64,000 bases of DNA, from positions 947,444 through 1,011,443 of the forward strand of contig JBMNFL010000001.1 of assembly GCA_050949315.1 (NCBI GenBank), read 5' to 3'. The notes under the pieces are model-generated. The model was given only the letters and a program-made list of their open reading frames with translations. It was not told the origin of the DNA and ran no database searches. Shown here one piece after another: positions 12,503-61,100 of this stretch (positions are counted from its first letter, which is position 1; the number at the start of each line of letters is the position of its first letter). Both the position numbers and the translations under genes were made by a program. Origin of the DNA: Bacilli bacterium (GTDB lineage Bacteria; Bacillota_I; Bacilli_A; RFN20; UBA1709).

Positions 12503-13546
12503 TCTTAATTGTCAAGACATATGTTACACTTTGAGAAATATTCTGTTACAACTTGATTAGGGCTTTTAAAGTTAAGACATGTTTTAGCTGTATTGTTATA
12601 TCGCTGCTCGTGTTTAGCTACTTGTTGTCTAAGTTCTTTCTCGCTAATAAAGATTTTTCGCCCATACAGAATTTTTCCATCTTCTCTATGACTTCTTTCA
12701 ACTTTTCCGTTCTGCCACGGTGAATAAGGTCTCGTCCTTTTTAATTTTATTCCTAACTTATTGGCCATCAGTTCAAATATACTCGTTTTATTAGTACGAT
12801 CATCATCATTTACAAATTCGGCTCCGTTGTCCACTTGTATCATATTAATTGGAAATCCCATGGCTTTTTCTAGGCTTTTAAGATATTTTGTCGTTTCGTA
12901 CGTACTCTTCTCTTTGACTATACAGAGAATTCTTTTGCGACTAAACTCATCAATTCCAGTGATTTGATAATATCTGTCTCCATATGTTGGGAATTTTATG
13001 CATTCAAGGGGAACATACTTTATATCTATCTGCACCTTGTCTCCAGGATATTTTCCGTCCAATCTTTCGTATTTTGTATAACTCTTACGATGAATTTCCG
13101 GGGTTTTATAACCCTTTTTTCGTATTTGTCGACACATACTCCCAAAACTTCTTTTATACCCTTTTTGACAACATCGAACATATACTTCTGCCAATCCATA
13201 AACACCATTTCTTCTTAACATTCGCTTAATTAGCGACAGCTCATCATCTGTATGAGCATTTGGACTAGTCAGGGGTCTTCTTGAGCGTAAGGCAAGACTT
13301 CTGATGTCCCCATCATATTTGTTTAATTGCCTATAAACAAACTGACGGTTGGTGTGATAACGCCTTGCGGCTCTTGTTACACCATTTTTGAGCGCATATT
13401 CACACATTTTCTGGCGAAAGCGCATTTCTTCGGTTATACTAGTCATGAGAGAGCTCCTTTCGGTACCTTTTTTTGGATAAACTTATTGTACCAGAGTCTC
13501 TCTCTTTTTTTATTTATTTCTGTAACATATGTTTTATCACACTACA
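12503..13546 (-). mobile_element. IS481/IS1202-like element, type A copy 1 (1044 bp), no matching target duplication
   Basis: Imperfect 26-bp terminal IRs (TGTAGTGTGATAAAACATATGTTACA / TCTTAATTGTCAAGACATATGTTACA); same length and protein as 58576-59619. Confidence 0.92.
12505..13446 (-). CDS. DDE transposase (HTH + rve core), IS481-like
   Basis: VQIDIK / QVDNGAEF / NGKVER catalytic triad; N-terminal HTH. Confidence 0.93.
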   Translation of the reverse strand: MTSITEEMRFRQKMCEYALKNGVTRAARRYHTNRQFVYRQLNKYDGDIRSLALRSRRPLTSPNAHTDDELSLIKRMLRRNGVYGLAEVYVRCCQKGYKRSFGSMCRQIRKKGYKTPEIHRKSYTKYERLDGKYPGDKVQIDIKYVPLECIKFPTYGDRYYQITGIDEFSRKRILCIVKEKSTYETTKYLKSLEKAMGFPINMIQVDNGAEFVNDDDRTNKTSIFELMANKLGIKLKRTRPYSPWQNGKVERSHREDGKILYGRKIFISEKELRQQVAKHEQRYNNTAKTCLNFKSPNQVVTEYFSKCNICLDN

Positions 13547-13811
13547 ATATTGATAAAAAACACAAAGCAGGTTTTTAGTCAAAAACCTATATAATATTTT
13601 TTTAAAGAAATAATGGTGCGGAGCTTTAATCTAAGATTGGTTTATTATTAATATAAGATTTATTTGAAGTGGTTGAGAAAATCCACTCTTAAATAGTTAT
13701 TTGAATTTTGATAATATAATGTTAAAATACTAGTAGTTAGTAAAAGAGTAATAAATTCGGTGCGCTTTACAACTATGCCGACAATTACATATATAGTACA
13801 TTCAAAGAAAG

Positions 13812-41809: not shown

Positions 41810-42186
41810 GATGAGAAAAATAGGTATGATAAACAAAATCACACCTTTTTTTACAATGTTAGAAATGGTTTAAATTGTAATAGTAAACACCACAAATCAT
41901 TAAAGTTGTGACTTACGAGAAGATTGTTATGGACTATAAAAAAGAATCATTGATGGCTTGTTGAATTTAAAGTTTAAGTCCTTTGATGCAATATTAATAG
42001 TGAACTTAGAATTGATAATGGTATTTAGTTGTATCTCTAGGTTGTCTAAAATCCTAATCAAGTTGTAGTAGAATATTTCTCAAAGTATAACATGTGCCTT
42101 AGTAATTAAGGGATTAGTGCTTACAAAAAAGCAAAAGCGATAGCATATCCATAAGAATATGCTATAATATCGCTTGAGGTGATTAA

Positions 42187-56120: not shown

Positions 56121-56149
56121 AGTATAACATAAGCCAAAATAAAAGACTA
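56121..56149 (-). promoter_or_regulatory. sigmaA promoter of the 56089 gene; its -35 and spacer lie inside the IS target duplication
   Basis: TAGTCT-N17-TATACT with TG extension. Confidence 0.6.
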
Positions 56150-56152
56150 GTA
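56128..56152 (+). repeat. 25-bp target-site duplication, left copy (IS type B)
   Basis: CATAAGCCAAAATAAAAGACTAGTA, identical to 57273-57297. Confidence 0.95.
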
Positions 56153-57272
56153 TGTTTAATATCAAATGATGTGAGACAAAATTAATAAAAAAAAGTAGGC
56201 ATCTTATCTATAATGAAGTTGAACCAATATAGAAGGAGATGCCCATGGATATTTTAACACAAGAAAGAAATTATATACCAGTAGATATTGAAACAAAATT
56301 ACACGCCTGCTTAAGGAGGACGGTTTCGTCCTGGCCAATAAGAAAAATTCTATCTTTTTATCACGTTAAAAGGAGTTCGTTATATCGTTGGTTAAAGCGA
56401 TTTGATGGAAGTAAAGAATCGTTATTAAATCGATCACATAGGCCTTTATCGGATCATCCTAATAAATTAAAAGCGAATATTGTTAAGAGAATACTAGATC
56501 TCCACAGAAGAAATCCTGATCAATCATTTGTTGAAATATGGGTTAGATTAAAACATGATGGTATAGATATCTCGCCATCTAGTGTTCTAAGAACCTTTAA
56601 AAGAAATGAAGAATTTGTTCCCTACAAACCAAATCCTAAAAAGCATGACAAACAATACCATACGCCCAAAATGGTTCATGAAAAATGGCAAATGGATGTT
56701 AAATATGTTCCCAAAGAATGCAAAATTGATAGTTTGGAAGGTCGATTTTATCAATACACTATCTTAGATGAATGTTCACGAAAAAGAGTTCTTTATTTCA
56801 CGGCCGAACATTCAATGTATGAAAGTGTTCAGGCTTTGATCTTCGCTTATAAGAAAATAGGTTGTTTTCCAAAGGAAATTCAAACAGACAATGGTGTGGA
56901 ATTCACTGATAAAGTTCGCCGCAAAAATAAGGGCGTGAATGTTAGAAAATATGAAAACTATTTAGAAAGATTTTGTAGAACAAACCATATAAATCATCAC
57001 TTGATAAGGCCTAGAACCCCCCAACATAATGGTAAGGTAGAAAGAAGTCATCGAATTGATCAAGATAAATTCTATAAACATTTAAAATTTTATTCCCTCG
57101 ATGATCTTAGATATCAAGGTAAATTATGGAACAAAAGATACAACAATTTACCTAAGCTTGTTCTTAAATTTAAAACACCTAATGAAGTGGAACTTGAAAA
57201 GTTAATTGAATTGGTTCAAACTACTGGTGAGATAAGATGTAAGAAACGTCTCACATCATTTGCAACCTAACA
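56153..57272 (+). mobile_element. IS481/IS1202-like element, type B (1120 bp)
   Basis: TGT...ACA ends; 25-bp imperfect IRs sharing CAAATGATGTGAGAC; 25-bp direct repeats. Confidence 0.93.
56245..57270 (+). CDS. DDE transposase, IS481-like
   Basis: WQMDVK / QTDNGVEF / NGKVER; HTH SSLYRW; stop inside right IR; start may be 56239. Confidence 0.92.
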   Translation: MDILTQERNYIPVDIETKLHACLRRTVSSWPIRKILSFYHVKRSSLYRWLKRFDGSKESLLNRSHRPLSDHPNKLKANIVKRILDLHRRNPDQSFVEIWVRLKHDGIDISPSSVLRTFKRNEEFVPYKPNPKKHDKQYHTPKMVHEKWQMDVKYVPKECKIDSLEGRFYQYTILDECSRKRVLYFTAEHSMYESVQALIFAYKKIGCFPKEIQTDNGVEFTDKVRRKNKGVNVRKYENYLERFCRTNHINHHLIRPRTPQHNGKVERSHRIDQDKFYKHLKFYSLDDLRYQGKLWNKRYNNLPKLVLKFKTPNEVELEKLIELVQTTGEIRCKKRLTSFAT

Positions 57273-57297
57273 CATAAGCCAAAATAAAAGACTAGTA
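57273..57297 (+). repeat. 25-bp target-site duplication, right copy (IS type B)
   Basis: Identical to 56128-56152. Confidence 0.95.
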
Positions 57298-57356
57298 ATA
57301 ATTGAAACCACCTTAAGAAAATTGTATAATGGTCTAAGTGTTAATAAGGAGGCCCT

Positions 57357-57896
57357 ATGGAGTTTGCTCATCCCCTACAAAGAATTTTTGCTTGGCTGGT
57401 TGATTTAGCAGTTCTTTTTGCTCTAATCTTACTTATTCATTCGCTTTTCTATAATCCTGAGGCGGATAATGCGGTTAAGCAACTATTTTTAGATTTCGTT
57501 ACTTTTAAACTCACTTTTTCTTCTTGGGTTCATTATTTTACGATTATGAGCAATGACCGTAGTTTAATGTTTTTTATCTCGGCCGTTCTTATCTACACCT
57601 TTTTTTATGTAATTATTCCCTGTTTAACTAACGGTTATACTATTGGTAAGATTTTCTTCCAAATTAGGGTTGTTAAATTAAATGAGAAAAAGATGTCCTT
57701 TGGAACCATGTTCTTACGGCAAATTTTGGGAAGTTTGGTTCTGGGCTTTTTCTCACTAGGGATAACTTATATAATTTCTGGCTTTTCAATTTTCTATGCT
57801 AAAGGTCTCCGCTCTATTCAAGACCGGATGTGCAACACCTTAGTAGTTAAGGATAATCCTTTAAGAAGAAAAGTTCCTTATACGGAACGCGCTTAA
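57357..57896 (+). CDS. RDD family membrane protein
   Basis: QRIFAWLVD, GYTIGK...IRVV, RSIQDRMCNTLVV. Confidence 0.88.
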   Translation: MEFAHPLQRIFAWLVDLAVLFALILLIHSLFYNPEADNAVKQLFLDFVTFKLTFSSWVHYFTIMSNDRSLMFFISAVLIYTFFYVIIPCLTNGYTIGKIFFQIRVVKLNEKKMSFGTMFLRQILGSLVLGFFSLGITYIISGFSIFYAKGLRSIQDRMCNTLVVKDNPLRRKVPYTERA

Positions 57897-57938
57897 AAAT
57901 AAATTATTTATTACTACGTTAAAAAAAGGGGATTATTA

Positions 57939-58451
57939 TTAATCCCCGTTTTCAATATTAAAAGGGTCTTTGGCTAGTTTGTCTTTTATGTCATCGTAGA
58001 TTTCAACCGGAACAAATTTAGAGAAATTACGATTGAAAGAGGCCAGTTCTTTAACGGCGGAACTTGAGATGTATAGGGAAGTGACATCTGGCATCAAGAT
58101 TACCGTCTCAATAGTGCGATTTATTTTGTGATTGAAATAATATTGGGCAATTTCAGCATCAAAATCTCTGGCATTGCGCACGCCGCGTATCATCGCAACA
58201 GCGCCTTTTTTAATGGCATAGTTGATGGCCATGCCCTCGTAAGAATCGGCTTCAATGTTGGGATATTTGGCCGTTACTTTTTTAAGCATGGCCAAACGCT
58301 CCTCGCTGGTAAAAAGGGAATTTGGTTTATTGCTATTAATACAAACAACCACATAAACCTGATCAAAAAGTTTTGAAGCTTTTTGCATAATTTCCTCATG
58401 ACCCCGAGTGATGGGATCAAAACTCCCTGGATAGATTGCAATTTTAGGCAT
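57939..58451 (-). CDS. coaD: Pantetheine-phosphate adenylyltransferase
   Basis: AIYPGSFDPITRGH, IRGVR, ISSSAVKE. Confidence 0.96.
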   Translation of the reverse strand: MPKIAIYPGSFDPITRGHEEIMQKASKLFDQVYVVVCINSNKPNSLFTSEERLAMLKKVTAKYPNIEADSYEGMAINYAIKKGAVAMIRGVRNARDFDAEIAQYYFNHKINRTIETVILMPDVTSLYISSSAVKELASFNRNFSKFVPVEIYDDIKDKLAKDPFNIENGD

Positions 58452-58542
58452 AATTGTTTTCCTCCACTGATATTAGTATAATACGCTTATTTTGCGGATA
58501 TTGCGACCTTTTTTTATTTTTTGTAATATTTCGCCCTTATTT

Positions 58543-58571
58543 TTTATAAATAATTGTTTTATTCTTGTCAA
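58543..58571 (-). promoter_or_regulatory. Near-consensus sigmaA promoter facing coaD; its -35 and spacer lie inside the IS target duplication
   Basis: TTGACA-N17-TATAAA. Confidence 0.65.
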
Positions 58572-58575
58572 AAGA
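58551..58575 (+). repeat. 25-bp target-site duplication, left copy (IS type A copy 2)
   Basis: TAATTGTTTTATTCTTGTCAAAAGA, identical to 59620-59644. Confidence 0.95.
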
Positions 58576-59619
58576 TGTAGTGTGATAAAACATATGTTAC
58601 AGAAATAAATAAAAAAAGAGAGAGACTCTGGTACAATAAGTTTATCCAAAAAAAGGTACCGAAAGGAGCTCTCTCATGACTAGTATAACCGAAGAAATGC
58701 GCTTTCGCCAGAAAATGTGTGAATATGCGCTCAAAAATGGTGTAACAAGAGCCGCAAGGCGTTATCACACCAACCGTCAGTTTGTTTATAGGCAATTAAA
58801 CAAATATGATGGGGACATCAGAAGTCTTGCCTTACGCTCAAGAAGACCCCTGACTAGTCCAAATGCTCATACAGATGATGAGCTGTCGCTAATTAAGCGA
58901 ATGTTAAGAAGAAATGGTGTTTATGGATTGGCAGAAGTATATGTTCGATGTTGTCAAAAAGGGTATAAAAGAAGTTTTGGGAGTATGTGTCGACAAATAC
59001 GAAAAAAGGGTTATAAAACCCCGGAAATTCATCGTAAGAGTTATACAAAATACGAAAGATTGGACGGAAAATATCCTGGAGACAAGGTGCAGATAGATAT
59101 AAAGTATGTTCCCCTTGAATGCATAAAATTCCCAACATATGGAGACAGATATTATCAAATCACTGGAATTGATGAGTTTAGTCGCAAAAGAATTCTCTGT
59201 ATAGTCAAAGAGAAGAGTACGTACGAAACGACAAAATATCTTAAAAGCCTAGAAAAAGCCATGGGATTTCCAATTAATATGATACAAGTGGACAACGGAG
59301 CCGAATTTGTAAATGATGATGATCGTACTAATAAAACGAGTATATTTGAACTGATGGCCAATAAGTTAGGAATAAAATTAAAAAGGACGAGACCTTATTC
59401 ACCGTGGCAGAACGGAAAAGTTGAAAGAAGTCATAGAGAAGATGGAAAAATTCTGTATGGGCGAAAAATCTTTATTAGCGAGAAAGAACTTAGACAACAA
59501 GTAGCTAAACACGAGCAGCGATATAACAATACAGCTAAAACATGTCTTAACTTTAAAAGCCCTAATCAAGTTGTAACAGAATATTTCTCAAAGTGTAACA
59601 TATGTCTTGACAATTAAGA
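58576..59619 (+). mobile_element. IS481/IS1202-like element, type A copy 2 (1044 bp)
   Basis: Same IRs, length and protein as 12503-13546, in inverted orientation; 25-bp direct repeats. Confidence 0.94.
58676..59617 (+). CDS. DDE transposase, IS481-like
   Basis: Identical protein to 12505-13446. Confidence 0.93.
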   Translation: MTSITEEMRFRQKMCEYALKNGVTRAARRYHTNRQFVYRQLNKYDGDIRSLALRSRRPLTSPNAHTDDELSLIKRMLRRNGVYGLAEVYVRCCQKGYKRSFGSMCRQIRKKGYKTPEIHRKSYTKYERLDGKYPGDKVQIDIKYVPLECIKFPTYGDRYYQITGIDEFSRKRILCIVKEKSTYETTKYLKSLEKAMGFPINMIQVDNGAEFVNDDDRTNKTSIFELMANKLGIKLKRTRPYSPWQNGKVERSHREDGKILYGRKIFISEKELRQQVAKHEQRYNNTAKTCLNFKSPNQVVTEYFSKCNICLDN

Positions 59620-59644
59620 TAATTGTTTTATTCTTGTCAAAAGA
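59620..59644 (+). repeat. 25-bp target-site duplication, right copy (IS type A copy 2)
   Basis: Identical to 58551-58575. Confidence 0.95.
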
Positions 59645-59702
59645 AGGCTTTTTTTATTAGTCACTTTTGTTGTATAATTTATTAGATAGGGAGGTGAATT
59701 TT

Positions 59703-61100
59703 ATGGAAGAGTTACAAGTTGGTTATCAGCCAGAACTTTTACTTGATGCCTTAAAAGAGCGTTCGGTTTTGAAGATCCGTCAAATCTTCGAAAATTTTAA
59801 TATTGTCGATATTGCGGATACGATTAACCAAATGGAAGATATCCAAAGTTTTTTATTTATCTATAAAACTGTTGCCCCCGAATATACCGCGGAAGCCTTT
59901 ACCTATCTAGATAGCAGCGTTAAAGAGCGGATTATCGAAATTTTAACCAGTGAACAAATAAGCAATATTTTAGCAAATCAATATAGTGACGATATTGTCG
60001 ATTTTATCCAAGAAATGCCCGCTAATTTAACAACGAAGATTTTGGCGGCAACACCCAAAGTTCGGCGTAATCAAATCAATCAACTTTTAAATTATCATGA
60101 AGACTCAGCGGGTTCAATCATGACCACCGAATTTATTGCTTTAAAAGAACAAGATACCATGGAGACGGCTTTAGCCAAGGTTAGAAAATTTGGGCGTAAA
60201 GCGGAAACGATTTCCTATCTTTTTGTCATTGATGAGAAAAGAATTTTAAAAGGAACTTTAAGATTAAAGGAAATATTCTTTATGGATGATAAAGAAGTTG
60301 TTTCCGATATTATGGAAAGCGACTTTGTCCATGTTTTAGCTAATGATGACCAAGAAGAAGTGGCTCAAACCTTTAAGAAATACGACTTAAACGCTATCCC
60401 AGTTACCACTAATGATGGTCGGTTAGTGGGCATTATTACCGCTGACGATATCATTGACGTCATTGAAGAAGAAGCGACCGAAGATATCCACATGATGGCA
60501 AATATCCAACCATTGGAATATGAATATAGCAAAACTTCTGTTTGGAGTCTAGCGAAAAAAGGCGTAGTTTGGATTATTATCCTAATGATTTCGGCTACCT
60601 TCACTTCTTTTATCATGAATGGTTACGAAAATGCGATGATAGTGGTTCCGGCACTCAGTATTTTTATTCCGATGTTAATTGACACCGCTGGTAATGCCGG
60701 CAACCAATCGGTTACTTTAGTTATCCGAGCTCTTTCTTTAGGCGAGATAAGTACGCGTGACTATTTGAAAGTTATCAGTAAAGAACTTGGTTCTGGAATC
60801 TTGGTTGGTCTAGCTGTAGCTGTTGTTAATTTTGTTTGGATTCTTTTCTTAGATGCCACCAAGCTTATTTCTTTAGTTAATTCCGATATTTCGCCTGTTT
60901 CTTTGGGAATTTTAGTGGCTTTAGCAATGTTTATCTCAATCGTTATTTCCAAATTCTTGGGAGCAAGTTTCCCCTTAATTATTAAAAAGCTTAAAATTGA
61001 TCCGGCTTTACTTGCCGGGCCTTTATTAACCACCTGTATTGATGCGATTTCTTTAGTAATTTATTTTTTATTAGCGACCCAAATTTTTCAATTGTTATAA
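59703..61100 (+). CDS. mgtE: Magnesium transporter MgtE
   Basis: SAGSIMTTEF, CBS pair, GNAGNQS, DPA..AGP..TT..D; GGAGG SD. Confidence 0.95.
   Translation: MEELQVGYQPELLLDALKERSVLKIRQIFENFNIVDIADTINQMEDIQSFLFIYKTVAPEYTAEAFTYLDSSVKERIIEILTSEQISNILANQYSDDIVDFIQEMPANLTTKILAATPKVRRNQINQLLNYHEDSAGSIMTTEFIALKEQDTMETALAKVRKFGRKAETISYLFVIDEKRILKGTLRLKEIFFMDDKEVVSDIMESDFVHVLANDDQEEVAQTFKKYDLNAIPVTTNDGRLVGIITADDIIDVIEEEATEDIHMMANIQPLEYEYSKTSVWSLAKKGVVWIIILMISATFTSFIMNGYENAMIVVPALSIFIPMLIDTAGNAGNQSVTLVIRALSLGEISTRDYLKVISKELGSGILVGLAVAVVNFVWILFLDATKLISLVNSDISPVSLGILVALAMFISIVISKFLGASFPLIIKKLKIDPALLAGPLLTTCIDAISLVIYFLLATQIFQLL

Follow-up and report, generated by a model that had tools for sequence, protein, structure and literature searches.

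Insertion of two IS481-like elements just upstream of predicted sigmaA-type promoters in a Bacilli genome

Two insertion sequences with unusually long target duplications are present in a stretch of 64,000 nucleotides of a Bacilli bacterium genome (GenBank assembly GCA_050949315.1, contig JBMNFL010000001.1, positions 947,444 to 1,011,443 of the forward strand; hereafter the window), and they raise the question of what determines where such elements insert. The elements were delimited by blastn against the 1.01 Mb genome together with their ends and flanks. The following features were recorded, in window coordinates:

56153..57272, plus strand: ISB, the type B insertion sequence, 1120 bp, ends TGT...ACA
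56239..57270, plus strand: ISB transposase, 343 aa, with rve DDE core and N-terminal HTH (Pfam rve, rve_3, HTH_32), IS481-like
56128..56152: left copy of the ISB target duplication, 25 bp, identical to 57273-57297
57273..57297: right copy of the ISB target duplication, 25 bp, identical to 56128-56152
58576..59619, plus strand: ISA (type A) copy 2, 1044 bp, ends TGT...AGA
58676..59617, plus strand: ISA transposase, 313 aa (Pfam rve, rve_3), IS481-like
58551..58575: left copy of the ISA copy 2 target duplication, 25 bp, identical to 59620-59644
59620..59644: right copy of the ISA copy 2 target duplication, 25 bp, identical to 58551-58575
12503..13546, minus strand: ISA copy 1, full-length, no target duplication
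42048..42110, plus strand: degraded relic of the right end of an ISA-type element, 84-86% identity

The two exact 25-bp duplications agree with those given in an earlier, first-pass annotation of the window; they stretch to 26 nt if one ambiguous A is counted. Seven full copies of ISB, all 100% identical, and four of ISA were found in the genome, and duplications of 25-26 bp flank six of the former and three of the latter. Since ISA and ISB stand in tandem at one site, with the duplication present three times, the genome holds eight independent duplicated sites. The ISA and ISB transposases are 37% identical (BLASTP).

Promoter-like sites, scored out of 12, were located on both sides of the two window insertions:

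56121..56149, minus strand: leftward promoter-like site TAGTCT-N17-TATACT, score 8/12, partly within the ISB duplication and upstream of an ORF at 56089-55529
57302..57330, plus strand: predicted, targeted promoter of an RDD-family gene, −35 TTGAAA (57302-57307), 17-nt spacer, −10 TATAAT (57325-57330)
58543..58571, minus strand: predicted coaD promoter TTGACA-N17-TATAAA, score 11/12
59649..59678, plus strand: predicted, targeted promoter of mgtE, −10 TATAAT (59673-59678), weak −35

The gene following the right side of ISB belongs to the RDD family (Pfam RDD) and has its ATG at 57357; the −35 box of its predicted promoter begins 5 nt beyond the ISB duplication. For mgtE (ATG at 59703; MgtE domains found by Pfam) two −35 boxes may be read, both weak: either TTTTTT (59649-59654), followed by an 18-nt spacer, or TTTTTA (59651-59656), followed by one of 16 nt. 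The predicted mgtE promoter stands back-to-back with that of coaD, whose product is a coaD-like cytidylyltransferase (57939-58451, Pfam).

According to the first-pass annotation, the 25-bp target consists of the −35 box and spacer of a promoter facing off the left end of the element, and the stagger rebuilds that promoter. The motifs are in place. At ISA copy 2, TTGACA (58571-58566) and TATAAA (58548-58543) on the minus strand are 17 nt apart, with 4 nt (58572-58575) separating the −35 box from the left tip at 58576, and the duplication takes in the −35 box and 15 of the 17 spacer bases. At ISB, TAGTCT (56149-56144) and TATACT (56126-56121) also have a 17-nt spacer, with 3 nt before the left tip at 56153, and at ISA copy 1 (13546..12503, minus strand) TTGATA (13550-13555) lies 3 nt off the left tip.

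An alignment query supplied 80 loci of relatives and ISA 31, with the IS tips set by conserved end motifs. At each left junction we looked for a promoter-like site that scored 8 or more out of 12 and whose −35 box stood at +4/+5, counted from the left tip. This register was occupied at 4/10 left junctions of the present genome (B7, A1, A2, A3); the sites beside coaD (score 11) and at 56121-56149 (score 8) are real, and a further case lies outside the window (A3, TTGACT at +4, score 9.5). Against this, it was absent from five of the eight duplicated sites of the same genome, and among relatives it fitted just 2/72 left junctions (L100, L155), with about 2.3 expected; none of their 19 ISA-like left junctions reached a score of 9. 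The peak that had been predicted for homolog flanks thus amounted to 6/82 left junctions at a score of at least 8 and to 2/82 at 9 or more. Every positive site also has an outward promoter on the opposite side. The leftward promoters, one for coaD and one for the ORF at 56089-55529, each form half of a divergent, back-to-back promoter pair, and a mirrored divergent promoter was found at 4/30 targeted sites (three in this genome and one in relatives; 1.4 expected, P=0.05). It is therefore very improbable that the leftward promoter is the target; the core idea, insertion in register with sigmaA-type promoters that are left intact, held, with another register and another promoter.

Insertion is very probably aimed just upstream of predicted sigma70/sigmaA-type promoters in a fixed register, with the targeting promoter outside the duplication, facing away from the IS, and its −35 box starting at +5 past the duplication. 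In this genome the predicted promoters so targeted are on the right side of the IS: at the eight duplicated sites the right flank carries a promoter-like site with the −35 at +1 to +7 (+5 in five of them) and scores of 7.5-11 of 12. Among relatives, duplications were found in 38 of 70 elements with both tips (25 bp in 19, 26 bp in 18 and 24 bp in 1) and were not found in 32, many of which came from metagenome bins, in which repeats are liable to be wrongly joined.

Outward promoters scoring at least 9 of 12 were sought in 166 junction flanks. The −35 box began at offset 29 from the IS tip in 21 flanks and at offset 30 in 25, and counts at every other offset ranged from 0 to 3; inward-facing promoters, taken as a control, never exceeded 3 at any offset. 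The distance is 29-30 nt because the duplication lies in between, the nearer joint being 4 bp upstream of the box. The 46/166 junctions compare with 0.9 expected (binomial P=6e-64, background 39 hits in 14,442 offset tests; this and other P values are overstated, since relatives are non-independent samples), and with a mean of 0.83 and maximum of 4 in 100 dinucleotide shuffles. The positional enrichment of −35 and −10 boxes suggested by the first-pass annotation is accordingly present, at a different place.

Base counts made without score selection gave a similar picture. On the lineage-preferred side of the duplicated sites (n=37) the counts were T 33 at +5, T 31 at +6, G 23 at +7 and A 23 at +8, and across the −10 box (+28 to +33) they were T 22, A 23, A 18/T 14, A 25, A 24 and T 25; on the non-preferred side base composition was flat. 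No consensus across sites was found in the duplicated segment itself. At four of the 37 duplicated sites (L077, L103, L153, L117) neither side carried a promoter-like site. L117 adjoins another IS.

The end that faces the promoter is lineage-specific (a tree of the lineages was built). ISA, ISB and ISA-like elements turn the right end towards it, and other lineages mostly the left. Promoter-facing ends numbered 29 left and 6 right in the large clade, versus 0 left and 16 right in ISA-like elements plus this genome (Fisher P=1e-8). Orientation is hence non-random within lineages, as had been anticipated, but no single end is preferred throughout.

An empty ISB site was identified on a contig of run X2, where 56126 is joined to 57272 with an overlap of 26 letters. 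Run X4 shows an ISA right end directly against the 25-mer and flank at which the present genome has an ISB copy; the same position is used by two different elements. The distance from the IS tip to the start of the downstream ORF is 84-275 nt, and by sequence these ORFs resemble trpS, rplU, GAPDH, mgtE and a DegV-like gene (the Pfam scan covering mgtE and RDD only). Intergenic insertions account for 32 of the 38 duplicated elements, and the six intragenic ones obey the same register.

The intergenic majority, in a genome of only 1.01 Mb, could also be read as survivorship, in which elements insert almost at random and a compact genome retains only those copies that happen to spare genes and promoters. 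A peak at a single offset, sharp to 1-2 bp, is beyond what selection can produce, the 100% identity of the seven ISB copies indicates that they are recent, and neither the register of the six intragenic insertions nor the striking of identical positions by two different elements fits such a process. We regard it as extremely improbable.

Direct recognition of the target deserves more weight. The transposase multimer might use a spare DNA-binding domain to read either a −35-like hexamer or a promoter resembling the element's own abutted ends, with no part played by RNA polymerase. The remaining motif varies more than the TT at +5/+6, which occurs in 33 and 31 of 37 sites even beside an otherwise poor −35 box, TTGACA or TTTACA occurs in IS right ends 7-8 nt from the tip and TACAAT in left ends 8-9 nt from the tip, and some intragenic targets, such as B2 and L133 (4/6), have only a moderate −10 box. 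The −10 box itself, 28-33 nt off the nearer joint, speaks against this: a match of at least 5/6 at a spacer of 16-18 nt was found at 21/37 sites, and at 3/6 of those that are apparently intragenic, against a genome-wide null of 3.65% given a TT-starting −35-like hexamer. Conservation in the target is confined to canonical sigma70 positions, with the spacer unconserved, and bases specific to the inverted repeats are absent (C at the third −10 position in 2/37 sites, for example). The same target is moreover shared by three lineages with unlike termini (ISA, ISB and the large clade) and is common to IS1202-like elements, which have other ends again. Direct recognition is judged unlikely, and guidance by promoter-bound polymerase is retained as the preferred reading.

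Taken as a whole, the explanation we consider likely is that IS481-like elements are aimed upstream of sigmaA promoters, presumably via the polymerase. The DDE transposase of ISA or ISB would join the element ends to target positions 25-26 bp apart, the first joint falling 4 bp upstream of the −35 hexamer and the second a further 25-26 bp upstream, so that the duplication would cover roughly −40 to −65. This is the zone of UP elements and activators. As the segment is duplicated, the promoter would retain its own upstream 25 bp and a divergent neighbouring promoter would stay whole, so that insertion beside housekeeping genes may be tolerated. The otherwise puzzling duplications of 25-28 bp would thereby acquire a function, in that the upstream zone of the promoter is kept on both sides. 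Whether it is the RNA polymerase holoenzyme, bound at the promoter, that positions the transpososome seems evenly poised; sigma region 4 might make the contact, or else the alpha C-terminal domain, in line with what has been proposed for TnGBS. Polymerase-tethered transposition becomes directly testable in this system, which could also inspire tools for promoter-directed insertion, and the insertions may serve as base-precise promoter annotation in uncultured bacteria.

ISA and ISB are related members of a widespread, mostly Bacillota, IS481-like clade (2719 protein clusters at E<=1e-20). IS481 was their best-scoring NCBIfam family (NF033577, model positions 2-282 of 284), with 176 bits for ISB and 156.5 bits for ISA, both below the curated cut-off of 224 bits. 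The IS481 traits of a single ORF for an rve DDE transposase (about 310-340 aa), an overall length of about 1.0-1.3 kb (1120 and 1044 bp) and a TGT start (TGT...ACA in ISB and relatives, TGT...AGA in ISA) were all found. The duplications differ: those of IS481 elements in ISfinder are 2-15 bp, mostly 6 (Kojima 2023, PMC10045372), and here 37 of 38 duplicated elements have 25-26 bp and one has 24 bp. No report of promoter targeting by IS481 was found in the literature.

Membership of IS1202 was considered and rejected, the NF033594 model scoring 42 bits for ISB and 22.5 bits for ISA against a cut-off of 250 bits. Members of NF033594 in the phylum have 465-494 aa, and a range of 465-490 aa is given for IS1202 transposases, with repeats of 27-28 bp in the IS1202 subgroup and 16-17 bp in the ISTde1 subgroup (Siguier et al., 10.1101/2022.12.17.520857). 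The two groups share very long duplications, similar but not equal in length (26-28 bp in NF033594 elements), a related rve-type transposase and insertion beside promoters. Next to IS1202-like elements, on the side of the left end, the −35 box of a predicted promoter directly adjoined the duplication in 10/15 cases, and in 13/15 at a score of at least 8; the gap is 0-1 nt there and 4 nt in the ISA/ISB group. IS1202-type elements thus gain a target rule, the available part of Siguier et al. giving a target for the 5-6 bp subgroup only, namely XerCD sites (10.1101/2022.12.17.520857).

The remark in the first-pass annotation that no such rule had been described was too strong. The insertion point of TnGBS, ISLre2 (p-MULT 3) and ISKra4-group (p-MULT 4) elements lies 15-17 bp away from the sigmaA −35 box, on its upstream side (Guerillot et al. 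2014, PMC3942029, citing Brochet 2009 and Guerillot 2013), and in the available text promoter targeting by these Mutator-like elements is termed unique among prokaryotic transposable elements. They resemble ISA and ISB as DDE elements at a fixed distance upstream of a sigmaA −35 box, with orientation tied to the asymmetry of the element ends and a gene-sparing safe haven as target; by analogy with yeast Ty3, they were proposed to contact the RNA polymerase initiation complex (PMC3942029). Enrichment of sigmaA promoters at one offset (46/166) and oriented insertion, the marks of TnGBS-type targeting, were both found here. The transposase is Mutator-like there and rve/IS481-like in ISA and ISB (in Pfam, rve and rve_3 only), and TnGBS/ISLre2-type duplications are short, about 9 bp. 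The gap to the −35 box is 15-17 bp there (PMC3942029) and 4 bp here, with a duplication of 25-26 bp filling −40 to −65. The same promoter-upstream habit, with another geometry and an unrelated transposase lineage, would point to convergent use of promoters as a safe landing site. For the rule in IS481-like elements no published description was found in the literature; what is reported here is a fixed register, a requirement for the −10 as well as the −35 box, re-use of the same position and an empty site. The Ty3 integrase, of the same broad fold, is placed by the transcription initiation complex TFIIIB/TFIIIC (PMC3942029); as Ty3 is a eukaryotic retrotransposon at Pol III starts, the likeness is one of analogy only.

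More tentatively, the long duplications of the IS481/IS1202 superfamily (about 16-17 and 25-28 bp) could be the footprint of one shared, holoenzyme-guided mechanism. The transpososome would dock on promoter-bound polymerase and make one joint 0-4 bp upstream of the −35 box, beside sigma region 4, and the second one or two helical turns further upstream on the same DNA face; such spacing would quantise the duplication length. If so, the elements would be natural, base-precise markers of active promoters and a second independent bacterial invention of promoter-tethered transposition. The IS481EU elements of parabasalids, which have eukaryotic hosts and for which the available part of the account gives no target rule, likewise show discrete duplications of about 4, 15 and 25 bp and TGT termini (PMC10045372).

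The genome that holds the window is a single contig of 1,011,443 bp with 37.7% G+C (whole-contig positions carry the prefix G000:C1). The elements and promoters of the window on which the analysis turned were as follows.

56153-57272: ISB, type B, single-gene element, 1120 bp
56128-56152 = 57273-57297: exact 25-bp target duplication of ISB
57302-57307 (-35, TTGAAA), 17-nt spacer, 57325-57330 (-10, TATAAT): predicted RDD-gene promoter
58576-59619: ISA, type A, single-gene element, 1044 bp
58551-58575 = 59620-59644: exact 25-bp target duplication of ISA
59649-59656 (weak T-rich -35 box), 59673-59678 (-10, TATAAT): predicted mgtE promoter
13546..12503, minus strand: third element, an ISA copy without any target duplication

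The transposases (ISB 343 aa, ISA 313 aa) are 37% identical and both contain Pfam rve and rve_3 cores. The best-scoring model for both was NCBIfam IS481 (ISB 176 bits, ISA 156.5 bits), at scores below its 224-bit cut-off. Using blastn, seven full ISB copies, all 100% identical and thus recent, and four full ISA copies (99.7-100% identity), plus fragments, were found in the genome. Duplications of 25-26 bp flank six of the seven ISB and three of the four ISA copies, with a single mismatch in one. One target (G000:C1:63023-65212), which lies outside the window, carries a tandem of ISA and ISB, both facing the same way, and its 26-mer occurs three times; since this pair shares a single site, the genome offers eight independent duplicated sites. 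The ISB copy at G000:C1:244376-245495 has no duplication, and its right flank contains a promoter-like site at offset 28.

Past the duplication on the right flank, a -35-like hexamer starts at +5 in five of the eight sites and at +1, +6 and +7 in the other three, and is followed after 16-18 nt by a -10 box. The match to a promoter, scored out of 12, was 8.5-11 in seven of the eight and 7.5 at one intragenic site. Open reading frames with ribosome-binding sites start 84-275 nt downstream of the IS tip. From their sequences these look like trpS, rplU, GAPDH, mgtE and a DegV-like gene; the Pfam check of downstream genes covered mgtE and RDD only. No RNA family was found downstream of five targeted promoters using Rfam at gathering thresholds.

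The relatives studied came mostly from Bacillota and Mycoplasmatota. Of 586 confirmed relatives, 80 loci were obtained with an alignment of five transposases as query; ISA alone as query gave 31 further loci, and a metagenome scan with ISB gave three, of which one (L163) was usable; relatives of the same family or order had few copies. The tips were placed by matching end motifs, the element ends being strongly conserved; a generic inverted-repeat search had given too much noise for this purpose. Two loci, L002 and L004, were left out, as they have GC-rich hairpins and neither recognisable ends nor a duplication. In both (L002:1150-1420; L004 on the reverse strand; ~41% identity) long GC-rich palindromes lie upstream of the transposase gene, and by their sequence these elements may represent a different sub-type. 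Among 70 elements with both tips placed, 38 had a duplication (25 bp in 19, 26 bp in 18, 24 bp in one) and 32 had none. Many of the latter are in metagenome bins, where repeats may join unrelated flanks, and junctions were therefore scored singly. Junctions with doubtful tips were dropped (left, L057, L114 and L123; right, L079, L083, L092, L096, L112 and L123), as were L136 and both IS-IS junctions of the ISA-ISB tandem. The 75-bp direct repeat of L136 covers the transposase start and is a tandem partial duplication, not a target duplication. The right flank of L117 directly adjoins another IS of the same clade.

In the remaining 166 junction flanks, outward-pointing promoters (TTGACA, 16-18 nt, TATAAT) with a score of at least 9 of 12 were counted by the distance (offset) between IS tip and -35 box. 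Matches at offsets 28, 29, 30 and 31 numbered 3, 21, 25 and 2, every other offset gave 0-3, and the inward-facing control never rose above 3. Offsets 29/30 were matched at 46 of the 166 junctions, against a background of 39 in 14,442 offset tests; the binomial P of 6e-64 is generous, related sequences not being independent, but the peak is still unmistakable. In 100 dinucleotide shuffles the mean was 0.83 and the maximum 4, versus the 46 observed. Counted from the edge of the duplication, +5 is the first base of the -35 box in nearly all positive sites. A base table made without selection for promoters, on the side preferred by each lineage (n=37), read T33 T31 G23 A23 C15 A19 from +5 to +10 and T22 A23 A18/T14 A25 A24 T25 from +28 to +33, while the opposite side was flat. 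No consensus emerged for the duplicated segment itself, whose A+T content is 73% and whose four promoter-nearest bases are A-rich. A -10 match of at least 5 of 6 with a 16-18 nt spacer was present in 21 of the 37 targets and in 3 of 6 intragenic ones; the genome-wide expectation for such a match after a TT-starting -35-like hexamer is 3.65% of positions. In a large clade of IS481-like elements whose duplications are 25-26 bp long, insertion follows a base-precise rule that places it upstream of promoters.

The side on which the promoter lies depends on the lineage. For ISA, ISB and ISA-like elements it was beside the right end (16 right versus 0 left), whereas for the other lineages it was mostly beside the left end (29 left versus 6 right; Fisher P 1e-8 for the difference). 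Within a single genome one element was found in both orientations (L105/L106). This lineage bias recalls the ISLre2 elements, for which an asymmetry of the ends has been given as the explanation (PMC3942029).

The first-pass annotation had proposed promoter-register insertion of another kind, with a leftward promoter whose -35 box lies 3-4 nt from the left tip. All hexamers, spacers and distances that it quoted are correct, including TTGATA at 13550-13555 by the third element, and the idea was right in spirit, but the register was wrong and the observation not general. Even in this genome it holds at three of the eight independent sites (scores 11, 9.5 and 8). Of 82 left junctions overall, 6 fit it at a score of at least 8 with +4/+5, counted from the left tip, as the -35 position; four of the six matches are in this genome, and relatives gave 2 of 72 versus ~2.3 expected. 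These leftward promoters are the other halves of back-to-back divergent promoter pairs, in which the nearer joint falls 3-4 nt from the second, opposite -35 box. Such an arrangement was seen at 4 of 30 targeted sites, three in this genome and one in relatives (expected 1.4, P=0.05). As that annotation suggested, the long stagger leaves coaD with an intact promoter; this follows by construction and applies equally to the mgtE promoter on the other side.

Survivorship was considered as an alternative to aimed insertion, with insertions elsewhere being lost. It was judged very unlikely because the peak is only 1-2 bp wide, beyond what selection can make, and because the ISB copies, being identical, are recent. 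The register is the same at six duplicated sites inside frames that, once the empty site is rebuilt, stay open over its full length. Two different elements occupied exactly one position in two cases, one being the ISA-ISB tandem. The other was found in contigs of a public sequencing run (X4), where the right end of ISA (a loose end at window 59620) is followed by the 25-mer and flank of the ISB copy at G000:C1:256484. In a contig of another run (X2), 56126 and 57272 are joined and share 26 letters; this is the empty form of the site that carries ISB in the window. From the X4 ISA copy and the X2 empty-site form the population is therefore polymorphic for these insertions.

The rule could be read by the transposase from the DNA directly, without polymerase, and two features speak for this: the TT at +5/+6 is near-constant in targets, and the IS ends contain -35-like and -10-like hexamers. 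Recognition of a polymerase-bound promoter is favoured, though not proved, by the -10 enrichment, by target conservation that is restricted to canonical sigma70 positions with no IS-end-specific bases, and by the same target being used by lineages with differing terminal sequences. Relative to the promoter, the two joints lie at about -40 and -65, in the region of UP elements and activators that adjoins sigma region 4. This geometry makes it plausible that sigma or the alpha C-terminal domain is contacted. The transpososome would then be tethered by RNA polymerase. Co-folding of the ISA transposase (31-row alignment) with sigmaA region 4 (29-row alignment) gave a score of zero, which is evidence neither way.

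If abutted, the IS ends would make a TTGACA-N16-TACAAT junction, which would fit the circle promoter of a copy-out-paste-in element. That targets mimic this circle junction, or are remnants of the inverted repeats, was considered and rejected; nothing in the spacer or flanks of the target resembles the IS ends.

IS1202-like elements were searched for using NF033594 against 301 genomes of the phylum; 28 had matches at E<=1e-40, and 21 had matches over the cut-off. Extra copies were added and L221 was dropped as a tandem copy. The set was as follows.

L202-L210, L217, L222, L227-L233 and L241: IS1202-like loci (NF033594), other genomes of the phylum, 1.37-1.62 kb

Fifteen elements had target duplications, of 26-28 bp in twelve and 16-17 bp in three. 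On the left-end side a promoter with its -35 box directly against the duplication (+1/+2) was present in 10 of the 15 at a score of at least 9 and in 13 of the 15 at a score of at least 8, in a sample that is small and kin-biased; on the right side an abutting promoter was present in 0 of 15. The nearer joint appears to be fixed beside the -35 box, with the far joint one or two helical turns further upstream. The set suggests that the promoter habit is common to the long-duplication branches of the IS481/IS1202 superfamily, and it is probably shared with the IS1202-like elements. For a control set of classical IS481 elements, no match over the cut-off was found in any of 299 genomes sampled in the phylum.

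Established examples of insertion upstream of promoters are TnGBS, the ISLre2 family and some ISKra4-group elements, which insert, oriented, 15-17 bp from the -35 box, with RNA polymerase contact proposed (PMC3942029). Their transposases are Mutator-like (PMC3942029), unlike those of ISA and ISB with their rve cores. Duplications in ISfinder are 2-15 bp for IS481 and 5-6, 15-17 and 24-29 bp for the IS1202 group, according to a paper which states that no clue existed to the origin of the long ones (Kojima 2023, PMC10045372). In the accessible part of an IS1202 preprint a target (XerCD sites) is given for the 5-6 bp subgroup only, and none of four mentions of "promoter" is about a target (10.1101/2022.12.17.520857). 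In the full-text literature outside ISfinder/TnPedia, subscription journals and supplements, neither a 25-26 bp duplication nor promoter targeting was found for an IS481-like element.

Some copies (L053, L121, L125, L143-L146 and L159) come from bins or genomes that carry the labels Muribaculaceae, Coriobacteriaceae, Fibrobacter, Mucispirillum and Schaalia; either the elements have spread widely by horizontal transfer or some of these bins are mis-binned. Decayed ISA/ISB end fragments of 80-94% identity lie at 42048-42110 in the window and near 198.7, 374.9, 434-435.6 and 842.8 kb of G000:C1, and indicate earlier waves of these elements.
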